The notes under the pieces were generated by a model. It saw nothing but the letters and a program-made list of their open reading frames with translations, was not told the origin of the DNA and did not search any database. DNA of 64,000 nucleotides from a virus. Taxonomy: Duplodnaviria > Heunggongvirae > Uroviricota > Caudoviricetes. This document shows, piece after piece, positions 8,197 through 58,834 of the stretch; within the stretch, counting starts at the first letter, position 1, and each line of letters opens with the position of its first letter. Location of the stretch: the IMG/VR virus record IMGVR_UViG_3300042483_000604; one strand, 5' to 3'. The translations under genes were made by a program, and so were the position numbers.

Positions 8197-8229
8197 CCTA
8201 AATATAAGAACAATAGTCTTCTTAGGCAA
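8197..8229 (-). promoter_or_regulatory. promoter motif
   Basis: sequence. Confidence 0.55.
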
Positions 8230-35921: not shown

Positions 35922-36521
35922 CTAGTTAAGTTTTACTTGATAATCTACAAACGTTGCTTTCTTTGGTGCTTCATTTAAGAAATAGAAAGCAAGTGTTTTA
36001 TTTTTAGTTTTGATAATTTTATAGAAAGCTGTTGGTATAGCTGCACCTGCAGGTACTCTTTTAGGTACTTTGTCAAATACTATTTTTATTTCTACATTGA
36101 CTGGTCCTTCTGAAAAGGCTAGAAGTCTTTCATAGTCTTCTAATAATCTCCAATGAACTCTGTTCAGTCTTTCATTCTGTAGGGTACAGTTTAAGTATGA
36201 AAATGTTTTAAGTAACATTTCTCTAGTGCAGTTAAAGTCTGCCGCTGGAGCACAATGTCCTTTGTCGTAAACATTATTTACATAATCTTTTGCATCTGAA
36301 GTATGAATTGTTTTATCTGTATAAAAATCCATTCCTTTTCTAGATGCTCCAGCACCTGTACATAGTACTTGGTACTTTACCCACAATGGTTGTTCTAGTG
36401 TCTCTGAATACATCACTTCGTAGATGTCTGTCTTTACATAAACGCTATCTCTTAACTGTCCAAACCCTACTAACGGAAGTAAGAGTAATAATAAAAACTT
36501 CTTCATATTATACCTTTGCAA
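35922..36521 (-). CDS. secreted DNA/RNA non-specific endonuclease (Serratia nuclease family)
   Basis: signal peptide; DKGHCAP matches the DRGH active-site motif. Confidence 0.6.
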   Translation of the reverse strand: MQRYNMKKFLLLLLLPLVGFGQLRDSVYVKTDIYEVMYSETLEQPLWVKYQVLCTGAGASRKGMDFYTDKTIHTSDAKDYVNNVYDKGHCAPAADFNCTREMLLKTFSYLNCTLQNERLNRVHWRLLEDYERLLAFSEGPVNVEIKIVFDKVPKRVPAGAAIPTAFYKIIKTKNKTLAFYFLNEAPKKATFVDYQVKLN

Positions 36522-37005: not shown

Positions 37006-37779
37006 CTACACTTCTCTTTTGTCCTCAAATGCAATGATGTGAGGTCTCCAAGTCAATCTGTAACCATTATCTCTCACCCAATCAAACATTTTTGGATATG
37101 ATTTGAATAAAGCTTCTCTTGAATCTCCAGCTGGCATGAACCATACTTTGTCTTGAGGTATGTCTAGCATTTTAATACAAGCCATAATTTCTGCTAACGC
37201 TTCTTGATCCTCTCCATCCCATACTGGCTTTAAGTGGTAATCGGAATGATACGAGATTGATTTAGAAATTGCATCGTAGTTTAATCTTAACTTGTTATGC
37301 TGTTTGATCATTCTTTCATCTGTAACGTCTCCTTGAGGTGTGAGTACGCCAACCTTAGGGACAGAATTACTGAACTTAGGGGAGATTGATAATAGATTAA
37401 TTGGGTAATCCGTTTCAAGAAAATGACTTCCTTCGGTCTCAATTGTAATGAAAATATTTCTTTCATGTGCAAAATGTGTTAATTCATTTACTAATGCTGG
37501 ATGCATTGTTGGTGATCCTCCTGTTAGCATCATCTCTGTGATGTGAGGATTCTTATCGTACATGTTGATAATGTCTTGGAAACTAATATGTCCTTTTTCA
37601 GGATGAATACTTGTGTACCAAGAATCACACCATCCACCTTCACCAAACCAACATCTGTGAGTACAGCCTGTTGTTCTGATTACTACTGTTGGATAGCCTG
37701 CTCTACTTCCTTCTGATTGTACAGCTGTATAAAGCTCTACAATTGGAAGTGTTTTGTTATAATCTTCTATTCTTTTCAT
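37006..37779 (-). CDS. queE: 7-carboxy-7-deazaguanine synthase (radical SAM)
   Basis: CTHRCWFG radical-SAM Cys motif near N-terminus, QueE length. Confidence 0.7.
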   Translation of the reverse strand: MKRIEDYNKTLPIVELYTAVQSEGSRAGYPTVVIRTTGCTHRCWFGEGGWCDSWYTSIHPEKGHISFQDIINMYDKNPHITEMMLTGGSPTMHPALVNELTHFAHERNIFITIETEGSHFLETDYPINLLSISPKFSNSVPKVGVLTPQGDVTDERMIKQHNKLRLNYDAISKSISYHSDYHLKPVWDGEDQEALAEIMACIKMLDIPQDKVWFMPAGDSREALFKSYPKMFDWVRDNGYRLTWRPHIIAFEDKREV

Positions 37780-37908: not shown

Positions 37909-38118
37909 CTATCCGATATCGTAATGTTCCCAAATAGCATCGATATGCTCTCTTAACTTTTCCATAGCTGCTCTAGCTTCTTTACATAGTTGAACTAATT
38001 CCGGATCTTCTTCTCCTTTATATCCATAATGCTCAACCCAATATCCAAATCCTTGATTATCAATTTCTCCGAATAATTGTTCTGCTTCTTCTTCTGATAG
38101 TTTAATTTTACTCTCCAT
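37909..38118 (-). CDS. small hypothetical protein
   Basis: ORF track. Confidence 0.35.
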   Translation of the reverse strand: MESKIKLSEEEAEQLFGEIDNQGFGYWVEHYGYKGEEDPELVQLCKEARAAMEKLREHIDAIWEHYDIG

Positions 38119-38569
38119 ATATCGCTGAGTTTTTGTTATGTTCTTTAAATTCTACACTCACTACTCTTACTCTACCTTCTGTTTCTATTTGTATAAATTC
38201 AGATACTTTATCATAGATAAATTTAGCGAATTGTTCTGCTCCTGTAGCTGGAATTATTCTTAGTTGGATTATTTCTTCGTTGTGCATCTCTAATGCTTTT
38301 GGTAAGAATGGATCATCTTTTGCAATGATGTAAGTATGGTCGAACATATGGTCCATCCATGCTTTAGGAGGCATACCATCAATAGTGTTTTTAGCTCTCT
38401 TCATTCCTCCAAAGTCCCATACCCAGTTTCTTTCGTCTAGATCTCCTTCAAAAGTAATTTTGAAAGAAATACCATAACCGTGTAGGAACCTGCAATGAGT
38501 ACCTTCTGCTCTCCATTGACGAAATACTGTTGAGTATCCATCAAAGACTTTTGTTGATTGAAATTTCAT
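38108..38569 (-). CDS. queD: 6-carboxy-5,6,7,8-tetrahydropterin synthase
   Basis: T-fold PTPS/QueD pattern (CxxxHGH..., HxxxxE). Confidence 0.7.
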   Translation of the reverse strand: MKFQSTKVFDGYSTVFRQWRAEGTHCRFLHGYGISFKITFEGDLDERNWVWDFGGMKRAKNTIDGMPPKAWMDHMFDHTYIIAKDDPFLPKALEMHNEEIIQLRIIPATGAEQFAKFIYDKVSEFIQIETEGRVRVVSVEFKEHNKNSAIYGE

Positions 38570-43409: not shown

Positions 43410-43442
43410 CTTAAAGATAAGAAAAAAGACTCACATATGCAA
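43410..43442 (-). promoter_or_regulatory. promoter motif
   Basis: sequence. Confidence 0.5.
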
Positions 43443-43454
43443 GCCTTTTTCTAT

Positions 43455-44156
43455 TTATTTTACAAATAATATATTACTTTCAGAATCCCATTCTATATTC
43501 CAAGGCTTCTGAGTATATTCGTATCTTTCGTCTAATACTGAGGCATTTATATAATGTATGCCGTCAATAGTCTCAACTCCATATCCTGAATGAATATGTC
43601 CACAGACATGGATCTTTGGTCTAAATCTCTGAATTCTTTCTGCTAATAATTCACATCCTAAATTGTCCCAAGGTCTTCCTTCTACTGTATCAACAGAACC
43701 CCAAGCCGGGCCGTGTGTGATTAAGATGTCTGTGTTGTCAGGAATTGCTTCCCACTTGCCTGATAATTCAAGACTGTTTCTTTGTAAATTAAATGCCCAT
43801 GAATAGAATTCTGGTTGCCAAGGTGATCCGTAAATCTTAATGCTCTTATCTGTTGCTAAGTCATATATCTCGTATGCCTCGTCTTGCAGATAGATTATGT
43901 TTGGAAATTTAGATAACCATTCTTTTACATCTTCAGGATGGTTTTGAAACATTCTATCATGATTACCTGCTATGAACACTTTCTTATCGTAGCCTGGAAT
44001 TGAATCATACCAGTGTAAGAAATCAAAGATATCATTCTTATTGTATCCTGAGTTCATAATATCACCAGCATGGATTAGTAAATCACCACCAGGTAAATCT
44101 GAATATGGTATTTGTCCTTGCCGTGTATGTGTATCTGATATGAATGTTATTTTCAT
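43455..44156 (-). CDS. calcineurin-like metallophosphoesterase
   Basis: GDxxN...GNHD...GHIH motif series. Confidence 0.65.
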   Translation of the reverse strand: MKITFISDTHTRQGQIPYSDLPGGDLLIHAGDIMNSGYNKNDIFDFLHWYDSIPGYDKKVFIAGNHDRMFQNHPEDVKEWLSKFPNIIYLQDEAYEIYDLATDKSIKIYGSPWQPEFYSWAFNLQRNSLELSGKWEAIPDNTDILITHGPAWGSVDTVEGRPWDNLGCELLAERIQRFRPKIHVCGHIHSGYGVETIDGIHYINASVLDERYEYTQKPWNIEWDSESNILFVK

Positions 44157-44386
44157 TATAGTTTTTTGTTTTTAAAGTTCTGCCAAGATTCATCTTCATC
44201 TAGAAATTTCTCAATAAGAAAATATATACCTACTACCACAGCAGCAATATTAAGTAAGGGAATGAGTAAATAAGGTAGTGGTTCTAAAAATTCTTTTACA
44301 GCCCCTCCATCTCTTTTAACTAAAAAATAAACACCTACTATTGATATTAGTAGAGGTAAAACGTAAAGTAATAAAATCCAAATCAT
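44156..44386 (-). CDS. small membrane protein
   Basis: two TM helices; promoter 44408-44440. Confidence 0.4.
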   Translation of the reverse strand: MIWILLLYVLPLLISIVGVYFLVKRDGGAVKEFLEPLPYLLIPLLNIAAVVVGIYFLIEKFLDEDESWQNFKNKKL

Positions 44387-44407
44387 ATCTTTTGCTTTTA
44401 AATTATA

Positions 44408-44440
44408 CCTAAATATATGAAATTATATTTGGCTTTCCAA
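44408..44440 (-). promoter_or_regulatory. promoter motif
   Basis: sequence. Confidence 0.5.
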
Positions 44441-45652: not shown

Positions 45653-46582
45653 TTATACTGTATGTTCAATTTGTACTCTTACACAATTCTGAGGTAATCT
45701 ATGGATGTGTCTGTAGTTGTTTATGTAACCCATCATATTTGCACTACCAACTGCATTTGCAGAATGTATTACAACATCAACAACAGGAGATCCATCAAGC
45801 CACTGATTGACCAACCATTTAGTGCAATCCATTCCAGTTTTCTCTTCAATGTTATCATAATTTAATTCGTAGTTGTGATACACGTTTGAGTGCCATTCAG
45901 CCATTGCTGAAGGTCCTAAATCATGATCTAATGAAATTATATCAATGTTTTCTAACCCGTAATAAGTAATTTGATCTACAAATTGTTCATAGTTTCTAAC
46001 TACTTTCCAAGTTGGATCAACTGGTGTTCTTACGTCGTCTAGGTATATTTTTATTTTATTCATATCAACAGTATTTTCAATACAAGTACAATCTGTTAAA
46101 TTGTCATTACAGTCTTTACATTGCAGTTTAGGTTCTTCTTTAGGAATGATGATTTTGTATTTACCCTTTAAACATTCTTTAGCATTTGGACAACTATCAT
46201 AATTCCATTCACAATTAAGACAAACACCTAATTCTTGTTTAATCTCAACAAACTCACAACTCTGATTCTTAACAAACCATTCTAGGAATTTATCATCAAT
46301 AGCTTGTACACCATCTTTGATTAACTCTTGGTCTGTTGTTAGAATGATTTTTCTCCAATCTCTTCTATCAAACAATCCTTGAGCATCTACTAATTTTGGA
46401 GTTGCTTGTATAAGGTAAATTCCATCAGTACACCATTCTCTTTCTTTAATTTCTTCATCAGAAGTGATATAGATATTTTGAGTATTCTTTCTCCATTGAA
46501 GTCTGTGTAATTCTAATACACCATCTTTGTTGTAAGATAATCTACTTGAATTTTCCGTTGGTAATACGTGTATGTTTTTCAT
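45653..46582 (-). CDS. cysteine-rich hypothetical protein
   Basis: multiple CxxC pairs in the central region. Confidence 0.45.
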   Translation of the reverse strand: MKNIHVLPTENSSRLSYNKDGVLELHRLQWRKNTQNIYITSDEEIKEREWCTDGIYLIQATPKLVDAQGLFDRRDWRKIILTTDQELIKDGVQAIDDKFLEWFVKNQSCEFVEIKQELGVCLNCEWNYDSCPNAKECLKGKYKIIIPKEEPKLQCKDCNDNLTDCTCIENTVDMNKIKIYLDDVRTPVDPTWKVVRNYEQFVDQITYYGLENIDIISLDHDLGPSAMAEWHSNVYHNYELNYDNIEEKTGMDCTKWLVNQWLDGSPVVDVVIHSANAVGSANMMGYINNYRHIHRLPQNCVRVQIEHTV

Positions 46583-47774: not shown

Positions 47775-47798
47775 AACCTTTTTGTTTTAATTATTATA

Positions 47799-47831
47799 CC
47801 TAAATATATGAAAAAAGAGTTGAACTAGCAA
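47799..47831 (-). promoter_or_regulatory. promoter motif with palindromic spacer
   Basis: sequence. Confidence 0.55.
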
Positions 47832-47848
47832 CTCTTTTAGTAATTATT

Positions 47849-48979
47849 TTAATGTGAATCTCCTACATCATGCTTCTCTCCGTAGATCAAATAGTCTGGA
47901 TTGATTACCTTTGCTACTTTCTTTCTATCACCTGAGGTATGTTTGATTACAATTCCTTCATGTGGTACTTTTGTTCCTTCAATGAAGTTATTAAATACAA
48001 ACATGTCTTGAACTTCTTGATTCCAAGTTCCGGTGTAAAGTACTTCTACGTGAGGTAAGTGTAACATATTGATTATTTCATATTGAGCTGAATCTGTTGA
48101 GAGATATTCGTTATCCATTTTTAAATCAAATCCTACGAACTCAATATCTTTCAAACCATATTCATAGTTCTTTTGAATACCGGCTCCATAAATTTCTCCG
48201 TAAAGAATAATTCCATCACCTACATGATAAGTTCCAAGAATATCACATAGGTCCCAAAGTTTTTCTTTAATACTATATTTTTCAGCTATTGTTCTCCAAA
48301 CATCAGTTGAGTAAAATCCTTGTGAGTCACTTCCTTTTTCACAGTTATGTGATCCATAAATGTATTCATAATCAATCCACTCATCAGCAAGTCTAAAGAA
48401 TTTTTTTACTTTATCCCAGAATGATAACTTACCTTTCTTTACAATACCGTATCTAGCATTTGTACCATGAATCTTTCTAGTGATTTGAACCATATCTTCT
48501 TCAGTGAACATTCCTGCTACGTTTTTAAGATTCGGGAATTTGTAGTAGATGTGGAAGTTTTGATTGTCTCTCCACTTAATCTTTCTACCTGAAGCCAATT
48601 GAATTTGTTTAACTGGTGGTTCATATTTTACAATACCAAATTTTTCCATCATGTCATCTCCATCTTGGTATCTGTCTCCATATCCTGGAATGTATTTAGT
48701 TGGGATGATTAGACATTCAGAATAAACTCCTCTTAATTTTACAGTTCTTACTCTACCTCCTTTTCTTAGGTAAGAAGTAACTCCCATTTTTTCAGAAAAT
48801 GCTTCTGGAATTACTGCATCTGTAGTTGCAATAACTGTTAAGTCACCTTCTTTAAATTCACCTTTTTTAGTGATAGCATTCCATCCTCCAACAATTACTT
48901 GTTCAATGTTGTCAGCATTTGGGATTGCTTTAATTTCGTTGATTGTTGCTACAAAGCAAACACTATTTTGATTTTCCAT
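47849..48979 (-). CDS. ATP-dependent RNA ligase (Rnl-type) with N-terminal OB/tRNA-binding-like domain
   Basis: KIHGTN nucleotidyltransferase motif I; promoter 47799-47831. Confidence 0.55.
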   Translation of the reverse strand: MENQNSVCFVATINEIKAIPNADNIEQVIVGGWNAITKKGEFKEGDLTVIATTDAVIPEAFSEKMGVTSYLRKGGRVRTVKLRGVYSECLIIPTKYIPGYGDRYQDGDDMMEKFGIVKYEPPVKQIQLASGRKIKWRDNQNFHIYYKFPNLKNVAGMFTEEDMVQITRKIHGTNARYGIVKKGKLSFWDKVKKFFRLADEWIDYEYIYGSHNCEKGSDSQGFYSTDVWRTIAEKYSIKEKLWDLCDILGTYHVGDGIILYGEIYGAGIQKNYEYGLKDIEFVGFDLKMDNEYLSTDSAQYEIINMLHLPHVEVLYTGTWNQEVQDMFVFNNFIEGTKVPHEGIVIKHTSGDRKKVAKVINPDYLIYGEKHDVGDSH

Positions 48980-49087
48980 TTTCTTTAATTTTGTTACACA
49001 TAATACATTTAACTTCTTTCAATACTAACCTTGTCCCTCGATAATTTATTTTCCAAAATTCTCTGAAGTCATGTTTGCATTCTTTTT

Positions 49088-49489
49088 TCATAACTGTACC
49101 TCGAATCTATTTTTCATTTGTACTAATTTTTCTTCTGGGACTCCATGCTCATTTACTCCTCCATGTCTATTTTCTACAATTAAAGAATAAACTCTGTATC
49201 CGTATTTTTCTGCTAGATCATAGTATGGTTGCATTTCCCATTCCTGAGTGAATGTATTTGATACTATAATTTTTTCATCAGGATTTATTCCGTTCCAATT
49301 TGACATTGACTCTTCAACTACTTGTCTACACCATTCATGAGCTGCTTTTAAATTTGAAGCATTGAATTCATATTCTCCTTTCTCATTAAGAAAGAAATGA
49401 TCTGCTTCATACCAAGAACCCCCTATACAATTTGCAAATGTTGATTTACCTGCTCCAGGTAATCCTCTTAATAAAAATAACTCTTTCAT
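49088..49489 (-). CDS. polynucleotide 5'-kinase (P-loop, T4 Pnk kinase-domain-like)
   Basis: LRGLPGAGKST Walker A, small AAA_33-type fold. Confidence 0.55.
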   Translation of the reverse strand: MKELFLLRGLPGAGKSTFANCIGGSWYEADHFFLNEKGEYEFNASNLKAAHEWCRQVVEESMSNWNGINPDEKIIVSNTFTQEWEMQPYYDLAEKYGYRVYSLIVENRHGGVNEHGVPEEKLVQMKNRFEVQL

Positions 49490-49634
49490 ACTATTCTCTT
49501 TTATCAGATAAATACTTTAAATAAAATGCCCATACTAAGTAGAATGTAGCTCTATCAATTTCTCCTGTCCATGTTGCTCCTACAGCCAAACCTGTACTTA
49601 TTGCTGAGGCTATTAGTAGTGTTGTTTTCATATT

Positions 49635-49904
49635 TTATATTTTTATAATATTATTTACTACTAATGCTCCTATGGCGTAACCTAAAGCTAAAGCAAAGGC
49701 CATTTTTATACGTTCATTCCAGAATTTAGATTCTACCATATAACCTGCAAACGGTAAAGCTAGAAATGGACCAATAAAAGCAAAAAATACCATTCCTATT
49801 GTATTAGCTTCTGCTGTAAAGCGAATATAGAATGTTGAACAAATCTCTATAATTAAAGCACTTGTAAAAATTATTCCATATTTTATATTAGATTCTTTTC
49901 TCAT
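49635..49904 (-). CDS. small membrane protein
   Basis: three hydrophobic segments. Confidence 0.4.
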   Translation of the reverse strand: MRKESNIKYGIIFTSALIIEICSTFYIRFTAEANTIGMVFFAFIGPFLALPFAGYMVESKFWNERIKMAFALALGYAIGALVVNNIIKI

Positions 49905-50538
49905 GATGATCCTTTGGCAACTCTAACTTTCTTATTGGCTGTTTTTCCATCAACGATAATACTTCGTCTAATGAAATTGGCTCTAAACCGTTTCCATCTA
50001 CTCCAACATCCATTGCTTTACCCTCTGCTACTCTTATATCTGCCGGTAAATGAACGTGTCCATGTAAGTGAATTACTCCGATGTTCATATCATGCCATGA
50101 CGCAATTGGATAGTGCATACAAACAAAAGTAAACTTTTCAGTTGTTGCTTTGTTGATTGGTCTTCTTACTTCTAATCTCAAGTATTGCTGTACTGAAGAA
50201 AATAGTCTTTGAATACCTTCCTTGTTTCTTTCAATGTGGTGATCATGGTTTCCAAGTACCAAGTGAATGTTTTTACAGTTGATTTGACTTCTGAATTCTT
50301 CAATCTTATCAAATCCTCCAAAGCTAAAATCCCCTAAGTGAATTAGAATATCATCTTCACCAACCATGTTGTTGATGTTATCCACCAAAGTCTTATTCAT
50401 AGAGGCAAGTGAATCGAATTCTCTTGTCAAGTTTGAAGACTCAGTCCAGTTTGTAGTAGCACTGCAAATGTTTGAATGTGAGTAATGTGTGTCTGATGTA
50501 AAGAACAATTGTTGTCCTTTTTCTAATACTAGTTTCAT
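49888..50538 (-). CDS. metallophosphoesterase (candidate 2',3'-phosphatase partner of the kinase/ligase)
   Basis: DTHYSH, HLGDF, GNHDHH, HGHVH motifs; promoter 50554-50586. Confidence 0.55.
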   Translation of the reverse strand: MKLVLEKGQQLFFTSDTHYSHSNICSATTNWTESSNLTREFDSLASMNKTLVDNINNMVGEDDILIHLGDFSFGGFDKIEEFRSQINCKNIHLVLGNHDHHIERNKEGIQRLFSSVQQYLRLEVRRPINKATTEKFTFVCMHYPIASWHDMNIGVIHLHGHVHLPADIRVAEGKAMDVGVDGNGLEPISLDEVLSLMEKQPIRKLELPKDHHEKRI

Positions 50539-50553
50539 GTCTTATTAATTATA

Positions 50554-50586
50554 CCTAAATATACGAATAAAAGCCTGCCGAAGCAA
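50554..50586 (-). promoter_or_regulatory. promoter motif with UUCG-loop hairpin plus U-run in spacer (terminator-promoter module)
   Basis: sequence. Confidence 0.55.
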
Positions 50587-50920
50587 GCTTTTTGTTAATT
50601 ATTTTTAAAAAAATTGTTGCTGGGATGTAAAGCATATAGACGATGTCGAATGCAAAATCAAGGTCAAAGACCTTCCTTACCACAAAGGCAAGGACAAGAA
50701 CTAAGTCTCAAAGTTGTTAGCCAATTACCTCTTTCGAGCAGACCTGTCTAACGGTTGAGTTCTATCTCAGTTTTGTAAAGTTTGTAAGGAAGCGAGTGTT
50801 AAAGGGCACCTGGCCATTAAATGTAGTTGATTTGCTATCATATAGTTTTATATTTAAAACTCCACTATCCCAGCATAAAGCTTTGGAGGATCGGCTTGTG
50901 CTTACCTCCTTAGCACCAAA

Positions 50921-52163: not shown

Positions 52164-52212
52164 GTACTACATTGGAGATGAGGGAATTGCTCTCATATTG
52201 GATAAACTTTAG

Positions 52213-52287
52213 TGTCCTATACAGGATTCGAACCTGTGACCTTCTCGTTATGAGCGAGCTGCTCTAACCGGCTGAGCTAAAAGGACA
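52213..52287 (-). tRNA. tRNA-Met/Ile2 (CAT)
   Basis: GGTTCGAATCC T-loop on minus strand, cloverleaf with CTCATAA anticodon loop. Confidence 0.7.
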
Positions 52288-52292
52288 ATTTG

Positions 52293-52366
52293 TAGCGTAG
52301 CGTGGACTCGAACCACCCCCCAGGCTTATGAGACCTAGATGCAACCTTTACACCTTAACGCAATTT
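52293..52366 (-). tRNA. tRNA-like, CAT anticodon loop, poorly paired acceptor/D arms
   Basis: TTCGAGT T-loop and CTCATAA loop, but acceptor has only 4 bp. Confidence 0.3.
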
Positions 52367-52372
52367 ATAAGC

Positions 52373-52444
52373 GGTCTGCACGGGGATCGAACCCGCAATC
52401 TTCGCAGTGACAGTGCGACGTGTTACCAATAACACCTCCAGACC
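52373..52444 (-). tRNA. tRNA-Asp (GTC)
   Basis: cloverleaf, loop CTGTCAC. Confidence 0.75.
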
Positions 52445-52498
52445 AAAATGCCCGTCTGTTCCGAGCTGTCAACCACCAGCTGTTATACAGCTGTATAG

Positions 52499-52570
52499 TG
52501 GAGCTACCGGGATTCGAACCCGGAATAACAGAATGCAAATCTATCGTGATGCCAATTTCACTATAGCCCC
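52499..52570 (-). tRNA. tRNA-Ala (TGC)
   Basis: cloverleaf, G3-U70 identity pair, loop TTTGCAT. Confidence 0.8.
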
Positions 52571-52645
52571 AGTTACTCGTCTTTCCGAGTCGTCAAATCT
52601 AGAAGCTGATTAAGCTATTCCTCCTAATACGAATAAAGAGCTCTG

Positions 52646-52717
52646 TACTGCGTACGGGATTCGAACCCGTGCCTTATCATAGAAAGTGATACGTGTTTAC
52701 CCCTTCACTAACGCAGC
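52646..52717 (-). tRNA. tRNA-Glu (TTC)
   Basis: cloverleaf, loop CTTTCTA. Confidence 0.75.
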
Positions 52718-52723
52718 AATTTG

Positions 52724-52795
52724 AGCGGCTAGAGAGAATCGAACTCTCATCTTTAGATTGGAAGTCTAAAGTAATGACCATTATACGATAGCCGC
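52724..52795 (-). tRNA. tRNA-Gly (TCC)
   Basis: cloverleaf, loop CTTCCAA. Confidence 0.8.
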
Positions 52796-52800
52796 AGTTG

Positions 52801-52874
52801 AGCTTCTGGACGGGATCGAACCGACTCTATTCTGGGTTACAAATCCAGTGCACCACCATTTGTGCGTCAGAAGC
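52801..52874 (-). tRNA. tRNA-Thr (TGT)
   Basis: cloverleaf, loop TTTGTAA closed by an A-C mismatch. Confidence 0.6.
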
Positions 52875-53069
52875 AAATTTAAACTATTAGAGGCTATTGG
52901 GAGTCATCAGTGGCAGCCTTTCACCGTAAACTCGGCTTCCCAATCTTATCTGCACATCTATCTAACTTTTTACGCATAATAGTTTATATTTTAATTAGAG
53001 CCGGGCTATGAATCCGTTCTGCAGGTTAGCCCCTGCTGCTTTAACCTTTATAAGCTAACTCTAATTTTG

Positions 53070-53143
53070 TACCCAAGGAGGGACTCGAACCCTCAATATC
53101 TAGATCCTAAGTCTAGCGTGTCTGCCAATTCCACCACTCGGGC
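53070..53143 (-). tRNA. tRNA with anticodon TAG (Leu-like D arm, short variable arm)
   Basis: GTGGAATTGGCAGAC D-arm like tRNA-Leu, loop CTTAGGA, A73, but only a 5-nt variable region. Confidence 0.5.
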
Positions 53144-53238
53144 ATTTGCCGCATGTGCGGCCACTTATCAATCGGTAGCTCCCTCTCGTTGTCCATCTGT
53201 GGGTGTAACACATTTGGTAGAGGGTCGAACCTTCAATG

Positions 53239-53309
53239 AGGTCGGTGTTGGAATCGAACCAACGTTACAGAGTTTGCAATCCTGCGCCTAACCATTCGGC
53301 CAACCGACC
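53239..53309 (-). tRNA. tRNA-Cys (GCA)
   Basis: cloverleaf, loop TTGCAAA, U73. Confidence 0.65.
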
Positions 53310-53394
53310 AATTTAAACATCTAGCCTGACCTGCCAGACAGTACGTGTCGTCGATCGTGCGTTACGTAGTAGATGTTTTATCTTCTTTCTTATA

Positions 53395-53427
53395 CTTAAA
53401 GATATGAACTTTATTTCTTTCTAGCAA
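53395..53427 (-). promoter_or_regulatory. promoter motif positioned to transcribe the tRNA sub-array 52213-53309
   Basis: sequence. Confidence 0.5.
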
Positions 53428-53436
53428 CTTTTTTTA

Positions 53437-53943
53437 CTAAAAAAATAAAAAAGTTTCCCATTCCTTTGGTATGTGTGTCATAGTTCTCATTAACATTAAA
53501 TAGTGAGGTCTTTTTGGTTCTGGAATTTCCTTACCGTATTCCTCTAATGTTAAATCTGCTTTCTCATGATTACATGGTCTGCAGGCTGTTACTAAATTAT
53601 CCCAAGCATCTTTTCCTCCTTTTGATTGAGGTATAACATGGTCAAGTGTTAGTGTTCTTTGATTTGAACATCCGCAGTAAACACATTCGTAATTATCTCT
53701 TCTATAAATATTCTCTCTTGTTAGAGCTACTTTTTGAATATTATGTTTTACATATGTAAATACTCTAATAATAGAAGGTTTATAAATTGTTAATTCTGGG
53801 TTATACAGATTAAATGTTTCTGGATGTTCAGCTATTACTTCAGCATTACCTTTATAAGAAATCACGAAAGCTCTTTCTGTACTTATAACTGATCTTGCGA
53901 TAAAGCTGGCATCTACTACTAGTGCTTTTTGATACTTACTCAT
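53437..53943 (-). CDS. HNH endonuclease inserted within the tRNA array
   Basis: CVYCG...LDHVIPQSKGG..WDNLVTAC..CNHEK canonical HNH motif. Confidence 0.8.
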   Translation of the reverse strand: MSKYQKALVVDASFIARSVISTERAFVISYKGNAEVIAEHPETFNLYNPELTIYKPSIIRVFTYVKHNIQKVALTRENIYRRDNYECVYCGCSNQRTLTLDHVIPQSKGGKDAWDNLVTACRPCNHEKADLTLEEYGKEIPEPKRPHYLMLMRTMTHIPKEWETFLFF

Positions 53944-53975
53944 GATTTACTTTTTTTAATGAAACAATATATTTG

Positions 53976-54052
53976 CGCGAACCCTAGGAATCGAACCCAG
54001 CCGTCGAGGTTTTGGAGACCTGACCGACACCTTGTCTGTGGAACGCATTTGT
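53976..54052 (-). other. degenerate tRNA-like element
   Basis: TTCGATT T-arm but no acceptable acceptor/anticodon arms. Confidence 0.25.
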
Positions 54053-54118
54053 AGGGTATCGCTTAACCTACCTAGATTAGCCTCATCTACTTAACCCTTA
54101 TGAGGGACGATTTTTTTG

Positions 54119-54189
54119 AACCCATACCTGGACTTGAACCAGGACTGAAACGTTAGAAGCGTTTAGTTCTTCCGATTAAACTATACGGG
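54119..54189 (-). tRNA. tRNA-Arg (TCT)
   Basis: cloverleaf, loop CTTCTAA, TTCAAGT T-loop. Confidence 0.7.
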
Positions 54190-54195
54190 CAGTTG

Positions 54196-54267
54196 AGGTC
54201 TTAGTAGGAGTCGAACCTACGTTCTATCGTTCGTAGCGATAAGTTTTTCCAATTAAACTATAAGACC
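54196..54267 (-). tRNA. tRNA-Arg (ACG)
   Basis: cloverleaf, loop CTACGAA. Confidence 0.75.
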
Positions 54268-54343
54268 AAATAAGAGAGGCTTTATTTAAGCTACTTTCTG
54301 CTATGCAACAGGGTAGGCAATTAGTCCTACATCTCTCTCTTTG

Positions 54344-54423
54344 TACCCCTGACTGGAGTCGAACCAGCAAGCCTGAGCGCCAAGTTTTAAGCCTGGTGTG
54401 TTTACCATTTTCACCACAGGGAT
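54344..54423 (-). tRNA. tRNA-Leu (TAA), class II
   Basis: loop CTTAAAA, 11-nt variable arm, A73. Confidence 0.65.
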
Positions 54424-54430
54424 ATGTTTG

Positions 54431-54504
54431 TGTGAAAGATGGGACTCGAACCCACAATCTCCTGAACCACAATCAGACGCTTTACCAATTCAGCTACAAT
54501 CACC
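54431..54504 (-). tRNA. tRNA-His (GTG)
   Basis: loop TTGTGGT, extra 5' G(-1); acceptor has two U-U mismatches. Confidence 0.55.
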
Positions 54505-54710
54505 ATATTGTACCGACTACAAGTTACGCTCTTGTCTGAGAATACTTATGAGATATTCTCGATCCTAGATCAAGTCGGTAGTTGATAGGGAACCTCTTAC
54601 CCTATCGCTGTACTATCTGATTTTAAAGTGTCTTACCACGGGGCCCCGTTCGTACTTCCTTCTCCTGCATTCCTTAGATGCGTTGTGAGGACGGTGAGGA
54701 GGTTTTTTTG

Positions 54711-54793
54711 AGGAAAGCAGAGGTATCGAACCCCATGCCCGAAGGCACGATACGCTTAGCAAGCGGTCTCAACTCCTAGTTGATTTACTTTCC
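54711..54793 (-). tRNA. tRNA-Ser (GCT), class II
   Basis: loop TTGCTAA, long variable-arm hairpin with UUCG loop; T-stem imperfect. Confidence 0.45.
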
Positions 54794-54798
54794 CTTTG

Positions 54799-54872
54799 TA
54801 GGTAATATAGGAATCGAACCTATAACCTCTCACGTATCAGGCGAGTGCTCTAACCAATTGAGCTAATTACCT
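54799..54872 (-). tRNA. tRNA-Ile (GAT)
   Basis: clean cloverleaf, loop CTGATAC. Confidence 0.8.
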
Positions 54873-54879
54873 ATTTTTG

Positions 54880-54955
54880 TGCTCATAGCTGGAATCGAAC
54901 CAACCTCGATAAGTCACTTACTCCAACCAACTGCTACTTGTTACGTACCTTGAGC
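54880..54955 (-). tRNA. tRNA, anticodon unresolved
   Basis: good T-arm and acceptor; D/anticodon arms could not be folded by eye. Confidence 0.4.
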
Positions 54956-55032
54956 TTTTACGATTGACCGTCACGTTATCCCACTTCAGGTTGGGGAGCT
55001 ACCACACTACCTGTTATACGAGCATTTAATTG

Positions 55033-55104
55033 CGGGCCTGGGAGGAATCGAACCTCCATAAGATGATTAACAGTCATCCGTAATAACCTTTATACGACAA
55101 ACCC
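55033..55104 (-). tRNA. tRNA-Asn (GTT)
   Basis: cloverleaf, perfect GATGA/TCATC anticodon stem, loop CTGTTAA. Confidence 0.8.
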
Positions 55105-55109
55105 GGTTG

Positions 55110-55182
55110 TGGACCCTACAGGAATCGAACCTGTTCCTCTAGTTCTTCAGACTAGCGTACGCACCAGCTATACAAAAGGTCC
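55110..55182 (-). tRNA. tRNA-Phe (GAA)
   Basis: cloverleaf, loop CTGAAGA. Confidence 0.8.
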
Positions 55183-55187
55183 AATTG

Positions 55188-55270
55188 TGGGATACTGTGG
55201 AATCGAACCACACGCTTCTTACAGCAACGATTTTACAGACCGCTTATCACACCAGTGACTGAAGCATCCC
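55188..55270 (-). tRNA. tRNA-Tyr (GTA), class II
   Basis: loop CTGTAAA, long variable arm. Confidence 0.7.
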
Positions 55271-55276
55271 AATTTG

Positions 55277-55348
55277 ATCATTCTACAGGAATCGAACCTG
55301 CTTCTCCACCCTCCACGGGCAGCGTAGTCACCAATCTACCAAGAACGA
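55277..55348 (-). tRNA. tRNA, atypical anticodon loop CGTGGAG (TGG-like, lacks U33)
   Basis: good acceptor, D and T arms. Confidence 0.4.
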
Positions 55349-55447
55349 AACTATAACAAGCTTTCATCGGCAAATTACTAACTCATAATAGACTCCATAT
55401 AGTCTTGAAAATACTTGCCGGTATTTTACTTGCTACCCAGAATTTTG

Positions 55448-55518
55448 TACCTCGTGATAGAATCGAACTATCGCCCTTTGCATGTAAAACAAATACGCTA
55501 CCATTACGCCAACGAGGC
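55448..55518 (-). tRNA. tRNA-Val (TAC)
   Basis: cloverleaf, loop TTTACAT. Confidence 0.75.
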
Positions 55519-55575
55519 AAATCTAATTCTACGCTTCGGTCTAAAAGCCCTTCTATGAATTAGTAACAGTCTTCT
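55519..55575 (-). repeat. conserved tRNA 5'-leader, copy 1 (upstream of tRNA-Val)
   Basis: CAAATCTAATTCTACGCTTCG...CTTCTATGAATTAGTAACAGTCT shared with 55653-55712. Confidence 0.5.
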
Positions 55576-55579
55576 TTTG

Positions 55580-55652
55580 TACCCCCGGCTGGCCTCGAAC
55601 CAGCTACCCCCGAGTTAAAAGCCCGGTGCCCGTCCACATGAGCTTCGAAGGC
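55580..55652 (-). tRNA. tRNA-Lys (TTT)
   Basis: cloverleaf, loop CTTTTAA, perfect T-stem. Confidence 0.7.
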
Positions 55653-55712
55653 AAATCTAATTCTACGCTTCGAGGACTTACTCGCGTGGTCTTCTATGAA
55701 TTAGTAACAGTC
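55653..55712 (-). repeat. conserved tRNA 5'-leader, copy 2 (upstream of tRNA-Lys)
   Basis: direct repeat of 55519-55575. Confidence 0.5.
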
Positions 55713-55720
55713 TCTTCTCG

Positions 55721-55796
55721 TCTGGTAGGCAGGATTCGAACCTGCGTGCTCTAGCGTCCAAGGCCAGCGAGATAAACCGGACTCCTCTACTACCAG
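55721..55796 (-). tRNA. tRNA-Pro (TGG)
   Basis: cloverleaf, loop CTTGGAC. Confidence 0.75.
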
Positions 55797-56011
55797 TGGT
55801 GAAGGGATTATTTTTTTAAAGTAGAATTCGCCCATCTCAAAACTACTGTAATTTCCGTAAGCAAAGCCATCGGGCTGATTCCCTGTACTCATGTCTTGCA
55901 TCGTTTTCTCCATATGGATTTCTCCACTACTTACTGATAATGCTTTCTTTACTAACCGTCCTACTTACTGATCAAGTGTTGGGATAGGCTTTCATTACTT
56001 ACAATTATTTG

Positions 56012-56083
56012 TTGGCTTACTAGGATTCGAACCTAGACTAAAACAGTCAAAGTGTTTTGTGCTAACCGTTACACTATAAGCCA
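56012..56083 (-). tRNA. tRNA-Gln (TTG)
   Basis: cloverleaf, AAACA/TGTTT stem, loop CTTTGAC. Confidence 0.8.
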
Positions 56084-56089
56084 ATATTG

Positions 56090-56173
56090 AGGAAGACGTG
56101 GGACTCGAACCCACAACAGTATTACCTGCTACCACTTTTCAAGAGTGGCTCCTGATCCAGCCGGATGCCTTCC
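56090..56173 (-). tRNA. tRNA-Ser (TGA), class II
   Basis: CCACT/AGTGG stem, loop CTTGAAA, long variable arm. Confidence 0.7.
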
Positions 56174-56221
56174 CTATGCTTTATCCAATATGTCAATGAA
56201 CTCTTATTCTTTATTTCTGTA

Positions 56222-56253
56222 CCTAAAGATACGATTTTTTTTTCTTTCTAGCA
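56222..56253 (-). promoter_or_regulatory. promoter motif positioned to transcribe the tRNA sub-array ending at 56173
   Basis: sequence. Confidence 0.5.
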
Positions 56254-56270
56254 ACTTTTTTTTAATAAAA

Positions 56271-56305
56271 AACCCGAATCTTTTTTTGATCCGGGTACCT
56301 TACTT
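56271..56305 (-). terminator. hairpin plus U-run upstream of the promoter at 56222
   Basis: ACCCGGATC-A7-GATTCGGGT then U6 on the minus strand. Confidence 0.35.
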
Positions 56306-56332
56306 ATAATATGTATTTTATACTATATCATA

Positions 56333-56476
56333 TCATACCCCGGTACCTCCTTGTTTCGGTTCGTTATTATATCCAGCAAAGCCTAAAATGACATCCCCAC
56401 ATAACGAATCCGACCACGTATTCAATGCTCTTGTCGCTGTGCTAAGTTGTTGATGTATGTTTTGAATTGCTTTCAT
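56333..56476 (-). CDS. small hypothetical protein (47 aa)
   Basis: ORF preceded by tandem promoter motifs 56496-56527 and 56565-56596. Confidence 0.25.
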   Translation of the reverse strand: MKAIQNIHQQLSTATRALNTWSDSLCGDVILGFAGYNNEPKQGGTGV

Positions 56477-56495
56477 TTTATTTGCTTTCTATATA

Positions 56496-56527
56496 TAAAT
56501 ATATGAACTTTTCCATTCCAGTCCAAC
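56496..56527 (-). promoter_or_regulatory. promoter motif (tandem copy 1)
   Basis: sequence. Confidence 0.4.
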
Positions 56528-56564
56528 TATATTTTAATTTTTTTTCTTTGTGTTTTTATATATT

Positions 56565-56596
56565 ATAAATATACGAACTTTTATTTTATAAAACAA
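56565..56596 (-). promoter_or_regulatory. promoter motif (tandem copy 2)
   Basis: sequence. Confidence 0.4.
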
Positions 56597-56616
56597 CTAC
56601 TGTTCTTTGGATTAAT

Positions 56617-56928
56617 TTATCCGTTTATTAATTTTTTTTTCTTAACTGGCTCACATCCATCATTGTTAATTGACGTAAGTTTTTGTTCTAATTTGTCTAC
56701 TCTGGAGTCTGTATAGGAAATACAGTCTGAGTGTAGTTTGTTTACTCGATCAACTTCCTGATCAATTCTACGATTTACTAATTCATCGTTTCTAGAAATC
56801 CAGTTCTGTATTTCAGTTAACTCTTTTTCTTGCTTTGCTACTTTGCTTGCTGTTCTAAACGCTACCACAACCCCCCATGCAAGGAGAGCTATACCAACCC
56901 CTAAAACAAATGCTAAAATTTGTTCCAT
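56617..56928 (-). CDS. membrane-anchored coiled-coil protein
   Basis: N-terminal TM helix. Confidence 0.4.
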   Translation of the reverse strand: MEQILAFVLGVGIALLAWGVVVAFRTASKVAKQEKELTEIQNWISRNDELVNRRIDQEVDRVNKLHSDCISYTDSRVDKLEQKLTSINNDGCEPVKKKKLING

Positions 56929-56969
56929 AATTTATAATTTTTATTTCAAAGAACAGTAGTTTAATTTTG

Positions 56970-57066
56970 TAGTCAGGACAGGATTCGAACCTGCTCCAGC
57001 TTTGCCATAAATAGTATATTTCAACTAAACCTTGGGGAGGTGCCACCAACCAATGGTCTCCTGACT
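56970..57066 (-). tRNA. atypically long (97 nt) tRNA-like gene, possible insertion/intron
   Basis: canonical T-arm and 7-bp acceptor pairing, but ~25 extra nt between D and T regions. Confidence 0.35.
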
Positions 57067-57071
57067 GTTTG

Positions 57072-57157
57072 GAATCGGTGAGGGATTCGAACCCTCATCC
57101 CGCTTAGAAGCGGTGTTACCCTCTGTCGGTATTCATTCCCGATTACACCAACCGATT
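57072..57157 (-). tRNA. class II tRNA (Leu/Ser-like), anticodon unresolved
   Basis: perfect GAGGG/CCCTC T-arm, 7-bp acceptor, variable-arm hairpin CCGC-TTCTAA-GCGG. Confidence 0.5.
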
Positions 57158-57943: not shown

Positions 57944-58834
57944 TTAATTGTTATGGTTATTTAATACTTTTGTTACTTCTGTTACTACATGTTCCCATGT
58001 TACTGGTCCTGTTTCGTCTGCGTAAGGAGCTGGATCAGGTCTTCCTAATTTAATAAATGCTTCTACTCTTTCAACTGATGAAGCTGATTTATAATCTGAG
58101 AACCATTCTTCAAATTTTTCAAATGTTACTGGGTCATGGTATACCATTTTAATTGGTTTGTAAGATGTATTAGTTCTTGAATAAACTTCATCAAAGTCTA
58201 ATCCTAACTCTTTACATAATACTTCTCCGTCTTGTAAGATAGTAAATTTATCTCCTTCTAAGTAAGGTGTAAAATACCCTACTCTTTCTGCTTCCCAGTT
58301 ACCCATTCTAAAAGCTGCATCATCTGCATCTCTAAATTCTTGTCTACAGTCTGGATAAATTGCATGATCACCTGCATGGATACCCATTGCAATATCACAA
58401 GTCTCTCCTGTTCTATTTGCAACTGATAAAGCTACTGCTTGAGTAATAGAAGCAAATATTTTGTTTCTGTTAGGAACAACTGTTGCTTTCATATTATCTT
58501 CTGCATAGTGACCTTCTGGTACATCTTCACCTCCTGTTACTAAAGCTGAATCTAGTAAATCAACTAATCCTTTTAATTGGATTTGGCGATACATAACTTC
58601 ATTGTAGTTTTTTCCTACTACCGTAATTGTACCTAATTGATCTTGTTCCGCTTTTTCAGAGCAACCATTAAGGTACTCTACTAATGATTGAGCTCTCTCT
58701 AACTCTACTCTGTGTTTTTGACCATAGTCAAAGCTAATAGCTGTAACTGTGTCATACTCTTTTAGACATCTAAGTAATAAGGTACTTGAGTCCATTCCTC
58801 CTGATAAGGATACTACAACATGTTTTTTAGACAT
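57944..58834 (-). CDS. queC: 7-cyano-7-deazaguanine synthase with C-terminal extension
   Basis: VVSLSGGMDSST PP-loop motif; ~70 aa longer than a typical QueC. Confidence 0.7.
   Translation of the reverse strand: MSKKHVVVSLSGGMDSSTLLLRCLKEYDTVTAISFDYGQKHRVELERAQSLVEYLNGCSEKAEQDQLGTITVVGKNYNEVMYRQIQLKGLVDLLDSALVTGGEDVPEGHYAEDNMKATVVPNRNKIFASITQAVALSVANRTGETCDIAMGIHAGDHAIYPDCRQEFRDADDAAFRMGNWEAERVGYFTPYLEGDKFTILQDGEVLCKELGLDFDEVYSRTNTSYKPIKMVYHDPVTFEKFEEWFSDYKSASSVERVEAFIKLGRPDPAPYADETGPVTWEHVVTEVTKVLNNHNN

Follow-up and report, generated by a model that had tools for sequence, protein, structure and literature searches.

RNA repair is among the oldest known phage counter-defences, as in the answer of T4 to PrrC, and immune systems that cleave tRNA have since turned out to be common. 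A 64,000-nucleotide (nt) stretch of DNA from a Caudoviricetes virus (IMG/VR record IMGVR_UViG_3300042483_000604; hereafter the window, whose numbering gives all coordinates) carries neighbouring genes for an ATP-dependent RNA ligase, a small P-loop kinase and a calcineurin-like metallophosphoesterase, and raises the question of whether these genes encode such a repair pathway and, if so, which RNA it serves. We call the three genes LIG, KIN and MPE1, and use MPE2 and cREC for a second metallophosphoesterase gene and a gene for a cREC-domain protein close by. Our analysis indicates that 47813-50563 on the minus strand is probably one phage operon for a heal-and-seal RNA repair pathway; that tRNA is its main target is a more tentative proposal, on which we stop slightly short of an even balance.

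Results

MPE1, KIN and LIG are predicted to share one transcription unit

We assigned the open reading frames (ORFs) of the window to families by Pfam and PHROG profile scans and located tRNA genes with ARAGORN. A first-pass annotation, made from the sequence alone, had named the ligase, the kinase and both phosphoesterases, and the positions that it gave for all four agree exactly with minus-strand entries of the ORF list (Table 1). Because the database matches are strong and the ORFs long, these assignments are not chance. From MPE1 through LIG, start and stop codons overlap or abut.

Operon boundaries were taken from a repeated 16-mer, TATATTTAGGTATAAT, and from hairpins read in the sequence. 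With up to 2 mismatches allowed, the window holds 8 copies of the 16-mer against 0.31 expected. All are on the minus strand, which is the coding strand, 4 are exact, and each of the four copies that we compared with the ORF lists lies just upstream of a start codon. Exact copies precede MPE1, the endolysin gene and the small gene ahead of MPE2, and those at MPE1 and endolysin each come after a hairpin. The repeat is likely to represent a class of phage promoters that each head a short transcription unit; cREC and MPE2 occupy two further units bearing it. A scan for sigma-70 promoters was uninformative (48 sites vs 42.5 expected), and the hairpin upstream of MPE1 went unflagged by the automatic scan because its T-run lies partly within the stem. 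Since the ORFs abut, the 16-mer precedes MPE1 and hairpins stand at both bounds, we read MPE1, two small hydrophobic ORFs, KIN, a 42-amino-acid (aa) ORF and LIG as a single transcription unit.

LIG is predicted to be an RNA ligase of Rnl5 layout with Rnl2-like motifs

The call of an ATP-dependent RNA ligase is borne out by a Pfam RNA_ligase match (PF09414, 5e-18, residues 164-359 of 376), by PHROG 968 ('RNA ligase', 1.3e-59) and by the KIHGTN motif that the first-pass annotation had pointed out (R168-K169-I-H171-G172-T173-N174). Of the N-terminal 'OB/tRNA-binding-like' domain also proposed there, the OB part holds, with residues 10-94 matching the PHA02142 OB-fold domain (PF21189, 6.3e-17); the tRNA-binding likeness is marginal, tRNA_bind (PF01588) being weakly matched by 4 of 31 LIG homologues at a best E of 0.054. 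Among solved structures, the Naegleria Rnl5 enzyme NgrRnl is the best match (5e-17 for LIG alone, 5e-23 for a profile of 31 sequences), and T4 Rnl2 (2hvq) comes next in the profile search (1.5e-4). It is in the N-terminal OB domain that LIG matches NgrRnl strongly, LIG 8-124 aligning with NgrRnl 8-128 (5e-17). Here D54 and K118, invariant in the 31 homologues (62-92% identity), align with NgrRnl Asp53 and Lys121, which hold the ATP gamma-phosphate and its metal (PMC7261155). Equally invariant are K169, H171, G172 and N174 of motif I, E262 of motif III, F284-D285 of motif IIIa, E341-G342 of motif IV and K357 of motif V.

The layout of LIG follows Rnl5: the protein ends ~17 residues past its nucleotidyltransferase (NTase) domain with no appended C-terminal domain, and the C-terminal domain that follows the NTase domain as the signature of Rnl2 is not present in it. 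NCBIfam TIGR02306, the DRB0094/DraRnl family, spans LIG at full length (profile positions 6-339 of 341), and TIGR02307 (Rnl2) matches at profile positions 76-131 only, scoring 24 bits where the cut-off is 197. In its NTase core, LIG resembles T4 Rnl2 no less than NgrRnl: motif I (K169-I-H171-G-T-N) is identical to T4 Rnl2 residues 35-40, and motif III, GE(I/F)xGxGIQKNxxYG, is common to LIG and T4 Rnl2. Given the OB-NTase order together with Rnl2-type motifs I and III, LIG has the Rnl5 layout with Rnl2-like motifs and, to judge from its residues, an intact active site.

Two other identities were rejected. LIG has no match to PF09511, the Rnl1 family, at E <= 0.01, and none of the 31 homologues matches it at E <= 1; the analogy with T4 Pnkp/Rnl1 that had been drawn for this locus thus survives as pathway logic and fails as to ligase family. 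A DNA ligase had been named as the finding that would overturn the first-pass reading. No DNA-ligase Pfam match was found in LIG or its homologues, a PDB chain named 'DNA ligase' (3qwu) matches weakly (E = 0.0064-0.012), and the NgrRnl and T4 Rnl2 matches place LIG among RNA ligases.

KIN is predicted to be an RNA-end kinase

The P-loop on which the kinase call was based is present (G9-LPGAG-K15-S16), and matches to Pfam AAA_33 (4.4e-9), PHROG 2071 (2.4e-37) and the polynucleotide-kinase PHROG 505 (1.7e-5) agree with a small 5'-kinase. G9, G12, G14, K15, D30, R108 and R128 are invariant in a 35-sequence alignment. The KIN profile finds T4 Pnk first among PDB sequences (E = 0.012), with D30 aligned to Asp35, the catalytic residue (general base) of the T4 enzyme. 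An AlphaFold2 model (predicted local distance difference test, pLDDT, 82.5) gave a consistent picture in Foldseek: the T4 Pnk kinase domain ranked top (1ly1, 6.7e-6, template modelling score 0.67) and Clostridium thermocellum Pnk second (4gp6, 8e-5), followed in order by the Mucorales kinase structures 9drz and 9d8a, which we take to be Trl1, by PSTK and by mammalian PNKP. The sequence pattern may also resemble that of the N4BP2/N4BP2L P-loop kinases.

An exhaustive search of 1.84 billion representatives returned 7,667 relatives of KIN. Among the closest (47-54% identity), 3 are fused to Rnl1-type RNA ligases and 5 to HD phosphohydrolase domains, and some phage records label the family 'putative polynucleotide kinase'. 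Because of these fusions and the Pnk-type structural matches we rejected, as the best reading, a deoxynucleoside monophosphate (dNMP) or small-molecule kinase, the other outcome that had been named as fatal to the first-pass reading: gluconate, adenosine 5'-phosphosulfate and adenylate kinases score below polynucleotide kinases, which are the best matches, and no dNMP kinase is among the 50 structural matches listed. The 133-aa protein is a kinase domain only, and no fusion to a HAD-family 3'-phosphatase was found in it. Together, these data are strong indirect evidence for an RNA-end kinase with predicted polynucleotide activity.

MPE1 is an intact calcineurin-like protein of the aq_1665 type

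Annotation of MPE1 as a calcineurin-like phosphoesterase is confirmed by Pfam Metallophos (2.7e-8), by PHROG 547 (1.3e-44) and by all five metallophosphoesterase motifs: D16-x-H18, G69-D70, G96-N97-H98-D99, H142 and G160-H161-x-H163. Within these, D16, H18, D70, N97, H98, H142, H161 and H163 are invariant in 30 close homologues. Searched against all PDB sequences, the MPE1 profile has a sole significant match, the uncharacterised Aquifex protein aq_1665 (7e-17); GpdQ is marginal (0.079). Membership of the type formed by CthPnkp, the C. thermocellum enzyme, and lambda phosphatase was rejected at the sequence level. Both KIN (profile positions 1-107) and MPE1 (194-259) match PHROG 8238, a 737-aa phage family annotated as RNA ligase, the MPE1 match to its metallophosphoesterase segment being weak (6.2e-4).

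The three genes are linked in related phage loci

The ligase protein of the window is itself found on metagenomic contigs of up to about 167 kb. We collected 80 IMG/VR loci anchored on ligases 61-91% identical to LIG, clustered the same-strand ORFs within 6 kb, and treated as fully flanked the 46 loci with 6 kb on both sides. KIN (36/46) and MPE1 (39/46) are by far the commonest ligase neighbours in these; the flanking genes vary widely, and gene order is sometimes rearranged. In loci anchored on MPE1 (n = 34), KIN lies immediately downstream in 30 and a LIG-type ligase is present in 21. The MPE1-KIN-LIG trio remains linked over about 100 metagenomic phage loci.

A candidate 3'-end healing gene, at least one, is present in all 36 fully flanked loci that contain KIN. 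In 15 loci in all (L015, L017, L022-L024, L026, L029-L035, L039 and L069), the MPE1 homologue, of 172-173 aa, is degenerate and has lost its metal ligands, with SNQQFGR for SDTHYSH, GN for GD, GEFD for GNHD and no HGHxH; these proteins look like pseudo-enzymes retained beside kinase or ligase. Among the fully flanked loci with a degenerate MPE1 (n = 10), 8 have a 2H phosphoesterase and 2 a HAD_PNKP phosphatase. A HAD_PNKP phosphatase stands directly upstream of the kinase in two loci without MPE1, and such a gene (PF25109, 1.9e-29) holds this position in L037 and L067.

Other recurrent neighbours with a bearing on RNA repair are a CCA-adding enzyme (9 loci), a 2H/Acb1-like phosphoesterase and a 'Swiss-army-knife' HAD protein. 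One locus (L088; MPE1 85% identical to that of the window) has, in this order, MPE1, KIN, an Rnl1-type ligase (PF09511, 9e-18) and a CCA-adding enzyme, and the ligases in the same slot of L082 and L083 match PF09511 too; from these sequences, we read L088 as a ligase-family swap in the same slot.

A clean indel separates the window from Flavobacterium phage immuto

The nearest sequenced relative is Flavobacterium phage vB_FspM_immuto (160 kb, Baltic Sea), with patchy nucleotide identity of 87-91%. Its MPE1 orthologue is 95% identical and is followed directly by a terminator, the promoter motif and the endolysin gene. Where immuto has 32 bp (L001 9486-9517), the window has 2,037 bp (47851-49887) that hold the small ORFs, KIN and LIG, and each of the two breakpoints directly follows a stop codon, one that of MPE1 and the other that of the ligase. 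The cREC gene is missing from the corresponding immuto region as well, and immuto has 4 annotated tRNAs (gt001-gt004) vs 23 in the window.

The operon adjoins a large tRNA array

As the first-pass annotation had remarked, the gene set lies beside a large tRNA array: the 23 tRNA genes are on the same strand, the nearest 1.67 kb upstream of the MPE1 start, and are candidate substrates or a parallel counter-measure. At least one tRNA occurs within 10 kb of the ligase in 55 of the 80 ligase-anchored loci, at least 5 in 40 and at least 10 in 30, and it depends on the lineage whether the array is upstream or downstream of the ligase. Of the MPE1-anchored loci that extend far enough, those with a LIG-type ligase have mostly 17-24 tRNAs, and unambiguous ligase-free ones have 0-3, with one exception at 20. 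This association of ligase with tRNA count is suggestive and is confounded by relatedness.

Toprim nucleases leave ends that can be ligated directly. Breaks made by metal-independent RNases carry a 2',3'-cyclic phosphate and a 5'-OH, and it is damage of this second type that a set with both kinase and phosphoesterase implies. Rnl2 and Rnl5 are both nick-sealing ligase families; the sealing of duplex nicks by Rnl5 enzymes is Mn-dependent. A tRNA with a single nick in its anticodon stem is resealed by T4 Rnl1 and equally by T4 Rnl2, a nick-sealing enzyme (PMC12445682), so that tRNA repair is compatible with a ligase of the nick-sealing type. On single-stranded RNA, the activity of NgrRnl is feeble (PMC4408790).

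Inside the array, between tRNA-Cys and tRNA-Arg, lies a 168-aa HNH endonuclease ORF that matches the HNH region of IscB (3.8e-18) and of Cas9d; homologues (cluster c31) occupy the same relative position in about 10 related loci, and the ORF is probably a homing endonuclease. Dispersed over the window are genes for 7-deazaguanine (preQ0/queuosine-type) biosynthesis, which suggest modification of phage DNA or tRNA.

Comparison with known repair systems

The KIN family is found in 675 phage records, and cultivated phages carry counterparts of the cassette, of which two serve as examples. Genes 23-27 of Escherichia phage nepoznato (Phapecoctavirus) encode, in a row, a cREC protein, a hypothetical protein, an MPE1 orthologue (31% identity, 5e-24), an Rnl1-type ligase and a kinase, so that MPE1 lies directly adjacent to and upstream of the ligase-kinase pair. 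Pseudomonas phage Pyxpy02, whose cassette is at genes 162-166, has an HD protein followed by an MPE1 orthologue (2e-17), an Rnl1-type ligase and a kinase (51% identical), with MPE1 upstream of the ligase-kinase pair, two small ORFs away, and with NAD-salvage and macro-domain genes nearby. Both cassettes share with the window an orthologous kinase (47-51% identity), an MPE1-family orthologue with its C-terminal DHH(E/K) motif (clearest in nepoznato), tight packing on one strand and adjacency of ligase and kinase; nepoznato also shares the cREC gene. Unlike the window's 376-aa OB-plus-NTase ligase (PF21189 + PF09414), theirs is a roughly 300-aa Rnl1-type enzyme (PF09511); their order is ligase then kinase, whereas the window has kinase then ligase, and the window's cassette differs further in adjoining an array of 23 tRNA genes.

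Iyer et al. (2021; PMC7824862) described computationally how phage RNA ligases act with polynucleotide kinases and with phosphatases that are mostly HAD proteins and in few phages calcineurin-like or HD enzymes, linked the cRec domain to these ligases, and proposed repair sets together with tRNA supply as counter-measures to host tRNA cleavage. All parts of such a cRec-associated RNA repair system (cREC, ligase, kinase and phosphoesterase in one neighbourhood) are found in the window. With that description, the kind of system was already known; the locus adds to a cassette type established by comparative genomics and introduces no new principle.

Characterised systems resemble the window's in part. 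Like T4 Pnkp with Rnl1, which counter PrrC, the predicted pathway needs 3'-phosphate removal, 5' phosphorylation and ATP-dependent sealing, and KIN has the T4 Pnk fold with an equivalent of its catalytic Asp; unlike T4, where the kinase is fused to a HAD-type 3'-phosphatase, the window has a kinase alone and a calcineurin-like candidate phosphatase, and LIG, unlike Rnl1, carries an N-terminal OB domain and gives no PF09511 match. With the Rnl5 enzymes DraRnl and NgrRnl, LIG shares OB followed by NTase and no C-terminal module, equivalents of the residues at D54 and K118, and a full-length TIGR02306 match; it differs in its T4 Rnl2-like KIHGTN in place of K-x-D-G and in its score below the equivalog cut-off. 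The DraRnl gene is paired with a DEDDh-like exonuclease gene (PMC5397189), whereas LIG is encoded in a phage operon with end-healing enzymes.

C. thermocellum Pnkp unites kinase, metallophosphoesterase and ligase in one protein, and so offers the same three predicted activities with a metallophosphoesterase as 3' healer and with a kinase domain that the KIN model matches. The window differs from Pnkp/Hen1 systems in having three separate genes, an MPE1 of aq_1665 type, a ligase that is not Rnl4 and, in its operon, no Hen1 methyltransferase. Fungal and plant Trl1 consists of ligase, kinase and cyclic phosphodiesterase domains, the last of 2H type, and needs a 2'-phosphate at the junction. Its heal-and-seal logic is the same, and KIN relatives fused to Rnl1-type ligases show a Trl1-like ligase-kinase arrangement; unlike Trl1, nothing in the window suggests a 2'-phosphate requirement at the junction.

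Neighbouring units and other genes

The first-pass annotation overlooked the cREC gene, which belongs to the next transcription unit, with the same promoter motif, 1.27 kb downstream from the ligase, and is found within 6 kb of the ligase in 20/46 fully flanked related loci. Its product has a C-terminal receiver domain, predicted to be cyclic-phosphate-processing, and a Cys-rich N-terminal half; residues 1-175 form an extension with a Cys-rich stretch and no database match, and most related loci encode the domain by itself, as a protein of 135-160 aa.

The second phosphoesterase, MPE2, exists as annotated (Metallophos 2.6e-13); its inclusion in the repair module did not hold up. MPE2 is close to mammalian MPPED2 (3rl4, 1e-38). 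Together with the gene for a 76-aa membrane protein it makes up a separate two-gene unit, at whose ends lie a promoter motif and a terminator of its own. MPE2 is also present in immuto, which has no kinase-ligase segment at this locus, and is near the ligase in 12/46 fully flanked loci. We therefore set it aside as probably lying outside the repair operon. It may act as a cyclic-nucleotide phosphodiesterase.

Within the operon, the 42-aa ORF ends in ...IKENGKSK, and close kinase homologues of 166-167 aa end in ...KEHKDGKSK; the ORF is probably a decayed remnant of a lost C-terminal kinase tail and not a gene. The 89-aa ORF has no Pfam or PHROG match and no homologue in the 80 related loci.

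Elsewhere, the window encodes a non-specific DNA/RNA endonuclease (Endonuclease_NS, 7.4e-25). Genes near the ligase in related loci (clusters c77, c30 and c63) include, judged from sequence alone, NAD-salvage-like genes (nicotinamide phosphoribosyltransferase, phosphoribosyl-pyrophosphate-synthetase-like) and a 2-oxoglutarate-Fe(II) oxygenase (PF13532, 2.9e-13), possibly AlkB-like. Such neighbours fit an accessory counter-defence region. In locus L113 (11179-15714), an MPE1-kinase pair is followed by a 1,511-aa PKD/CHU_C protein, with no ligase. Near the end of the window lies a gene for a 164-aa protein whose type IX secretion C-terminal sorting domain (8.2e-9) is a signal specific to Bacteroidota.

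Table 1. Positions of genes and signals in the 64,000-nt window
Feature	Position	Strand	Description
MPE1	49888-50538	-	calcineurin-like metallophosphoesterase, 216 aa; candidate 2',3'-cyclic phosphodiesterase/3'-phosphatase
Small hydrophobic ORF	49635-49904	-	89 aa; lineage-specific; overlaps MPE1 stop
Small hydrophobic ORF	49491-49631	-	46 aa; lineage-specific; homologue in only 1/80 related loci
KIN	49088-49489	-	stand-alone P-loop polynucleotide 5'-kinase, 133 aa; predicted 5'-end healing, from fold and motifs
42-aa ORF	48963-49091	-	between kinase and ligase; overlaps ligase start; homologue in 1/80 loci
LIG	47849-48979	-	ATP-dependent RNA ligase, 376 aa; predicted sealing; Rnl5 layout, Rnl2-like motifs
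Terminator-like hairpin	50569-50593	-	AAAAAGCTTGC-TTCG-GCAGGCTTTT; closes preceding unit; read from sequence
Promoter-like 16-mer	50548-50563	-	TATATTTAGGTATAAT; exact copy, 10 nt upstream of MPE1 start codon
Intrinsic-terminator-like hairpin	47813-47838	-	AAAAGAGTTG-CTAGTT-CAACTCTTTT then TT; 10 nt past ligase stop; operon end
All 16-mer copies	2884-2899, 3831-3846, 6012-6027, 6961-6976, 8191-8206, 44402-44417, 47793-47808, 50548-50563	-	47793-47808 precedes endolysin gene; 44402-44417 precedes small gene before MPE2
tRNA genes	52212-57157	-	23 genes, 19 amino-acid specificities, Trp absent; ARAGORN
HNH endonuclease ORF	53437-53943	-	168 aa
cREC	45653-46582	-	309 aa; PF20274 4.5e-21; candidate accessory 3'-end processing factor
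MPE2	43455-44156	-	MPPED2-family metallophosphoesterase, 233 aa
MPE2 unit partner	44156-44386	-	76-aa membrane protein
MPE2 unit terminator	43422-43451
Endonuclease_NS protein	35922-36521	-
Type IX sorting-domain protein	63480-63974	-	164 aa
7-Deazaguanine genes	30842-31765, 34742-35452, 37006-37779, 38108-38569, 57944-58834	-	QueF-like, GTP cyclohydrolase I, radical-SAM (QueE-like), PTPS/QueD, QueC
DNA polymerase gene	27758-30091

Discussion

The analysis upholds the view that the three genes make up a healing-and-sealing RNA repair set, with the healing functions divided among stand-alone genes. In the pathway that we propose, MPE1 would open the cyclic phosphate and remove the 3' phosphate to leave a 3'-OH, perhaps with help from the cREC protein; KIN, to judge from its fold, its catalytic Asp and the fusions in its relatives, would phosphorylate the 5'-OH; and LIG, as its family and active site suggest, would self-adenylylate on Lys169, transfer AMP to the 5'-phosphate and seal the break. 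Because LIG falls in the nick-sealing Rnl5/Rnl2 branch, its preferred substrate is likely to be a base-paired break, such as a nicked tRNA. With tRNA as the putative substrate and counter-defence as the putative purpose, the most likely role is to undo the cutting of tRNA by immune or toxin nucleases of the host, in parallel with the 23 tRNAs that the phage itself encodes.

Several observations count against this reading. The contigs behind the linkage counts are phylogenetically related, so that the counts do not stand for independent events, one locus (L108) has 20 tRNAs and neither kinase nor ligase, and a host anticodon nuclease was not identified, no host genome having been scanned for one. 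LIG scores 99 bits against TIGR02306, below the equivalog cut-off of 151.15, and has His171 in motif I where the K-x-D-G of NgrRnl has a metal-binding Asp; this residue, Asp172, binds the catalytic metal (PMC7261155). Characterised Rnl5 enzymes favour duplex nicks and act feebly on single-stranded RNA (PMC4408790), and the physiological role of the family has been called uncharted, its sole knockout phenotype concerning radiation recovery and genome reassembly, not tRNA (PMC5397189). As to MPE1, neither lambda phosphatase nor Pnkp is among its profile matches to all PDB sequences, and its structure model, from 30 close homologues, is too poor for fold comparison (pLDDT 45.9); because, in addition, its sole significant solved relative is uncharacterised, it is from gene linkage and context that we infer a 3'-end healing role. 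Immuto keeps MPE1 with no kinase or ligase beside it, and MPE1 therefore has, or can have, a ligation-independent function.

This last point leads to an alternative in which kinase and ligase repair RNA and MPE1 is an independent phosphoesterase, acting for instance in the breakdown of cyclic (oligo)nucleotide immune signals or in nucleotide metabolism, whose unit took in a kinase-ligase cassette; cREC or another enzyme would in that case heal the 3' end. It would explain why MPE1 of immuto is a single-gene unit between tRNAs and endolysin, why the indel is clean and begins right after the MPE1 stop, why MPE1 has no detectable similarity to known RNA-end phosphoesterases, and why 15 related loci keep a catalytically degenerate copy; phage calcineurin-like enzymes have, moreover, also been proposed as signal-degrading phosphodiesterases (PMC7824862). 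We nevertheless think it unlikely. MPE1 accompanies the kinase in 30/34 anchored loci, its orthologues stand with an Rnl1-type ligase and PNK in distant Escherichia and Pseudomonas phages, and those kinase loci among the 46 in which it is degenerate or absent carry a HAD_PNKP, 2H, cREC or MPPED-like phosphoesterase, the pattern expected if MPE1 fills the 3'-healing role.

A function in DNA metabolism seems to us more improbable still. LIG would here seal nicks with an RNA 3'-OH in duplex DNA (such as ribonucleotide patches or primer remnants from phage replication or recombination), with the kinase and phosphoesterase preparing DNA or hybrid ends in the manner of PNKP in the DNA repair of eukaryotes. 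Yet what recurs beside the ligase has to do with RNA (tRNA arrays, CCA-adding enzyme, cREC, 2H and 'Swiss-army-knife' HAD phosphatases of RNA repair), the same slot is taken by an Rnl1-type ligase, the family of the T4 tRNA-repair ligase, and the operon, part of an accessory region, is separated from the DNA polymerase gene by about 18 kb. What gives the idea some weight is that Rnl5 needs RNA on the 3'-OH side only and accepts DNA on the 5'-phosphate and template strands, and that loss of DraRnl renders Deinococcus radiation-sensitive and delays genome reassembly (PMC5397189, PMC4408790); in addition, the KIN model also resembles mammalian PNKP, and ATP-dependent DNA ligase genes lie a few kb off in L088, Pyxpy02 and nepoznato. 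Very improbable, in our estimate, is that the enzymes mature or rearrange the products of the tRNA array, or ligate processed RNA fragments, rather than answer host damage. The arrays do adjoin the cassette on the same strand in many lineages, and the HNH ORF that interrupts the window's array indicates a dynamic region. However, all 23 tRNA genes are standard and uninterrupted, with no split or intron-bearing ones reported by ARAGORN, so that a ligation step is not obviously needed; phages with the cassette and only 0-2 nearby tRNAs exist; and enzymes that heal both 5' and 3' ends fit nuclease damage better than RNase P/Z-type maturation.

The complementary phosphoesterase types seen across relatives can guide work on the aq_1665-like metallophosphoesterase family, and the comparison with immuto, a cultivated isolate without exactly the 2.0-kb kinase-ligase segment, provides a natural near-isogenic contrast. 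That the same phosphoesterase-kinase pair occurs with either an Rnl1-type or an Rnl5/Rnl2-like ligase in one and the same position yields a concrete hypothesis for the function of phage Rnl5 enzymes. It is doubtful that an Rnl5-type ligase has displaced an Rnl1-type one in an otherwise conserved phage cassette; if this were true, it would supply the first defined in vivo substrate for the Rnl5 family, and it would mean that phages exchange ligase families to match the geometry of host-inflicted damage.

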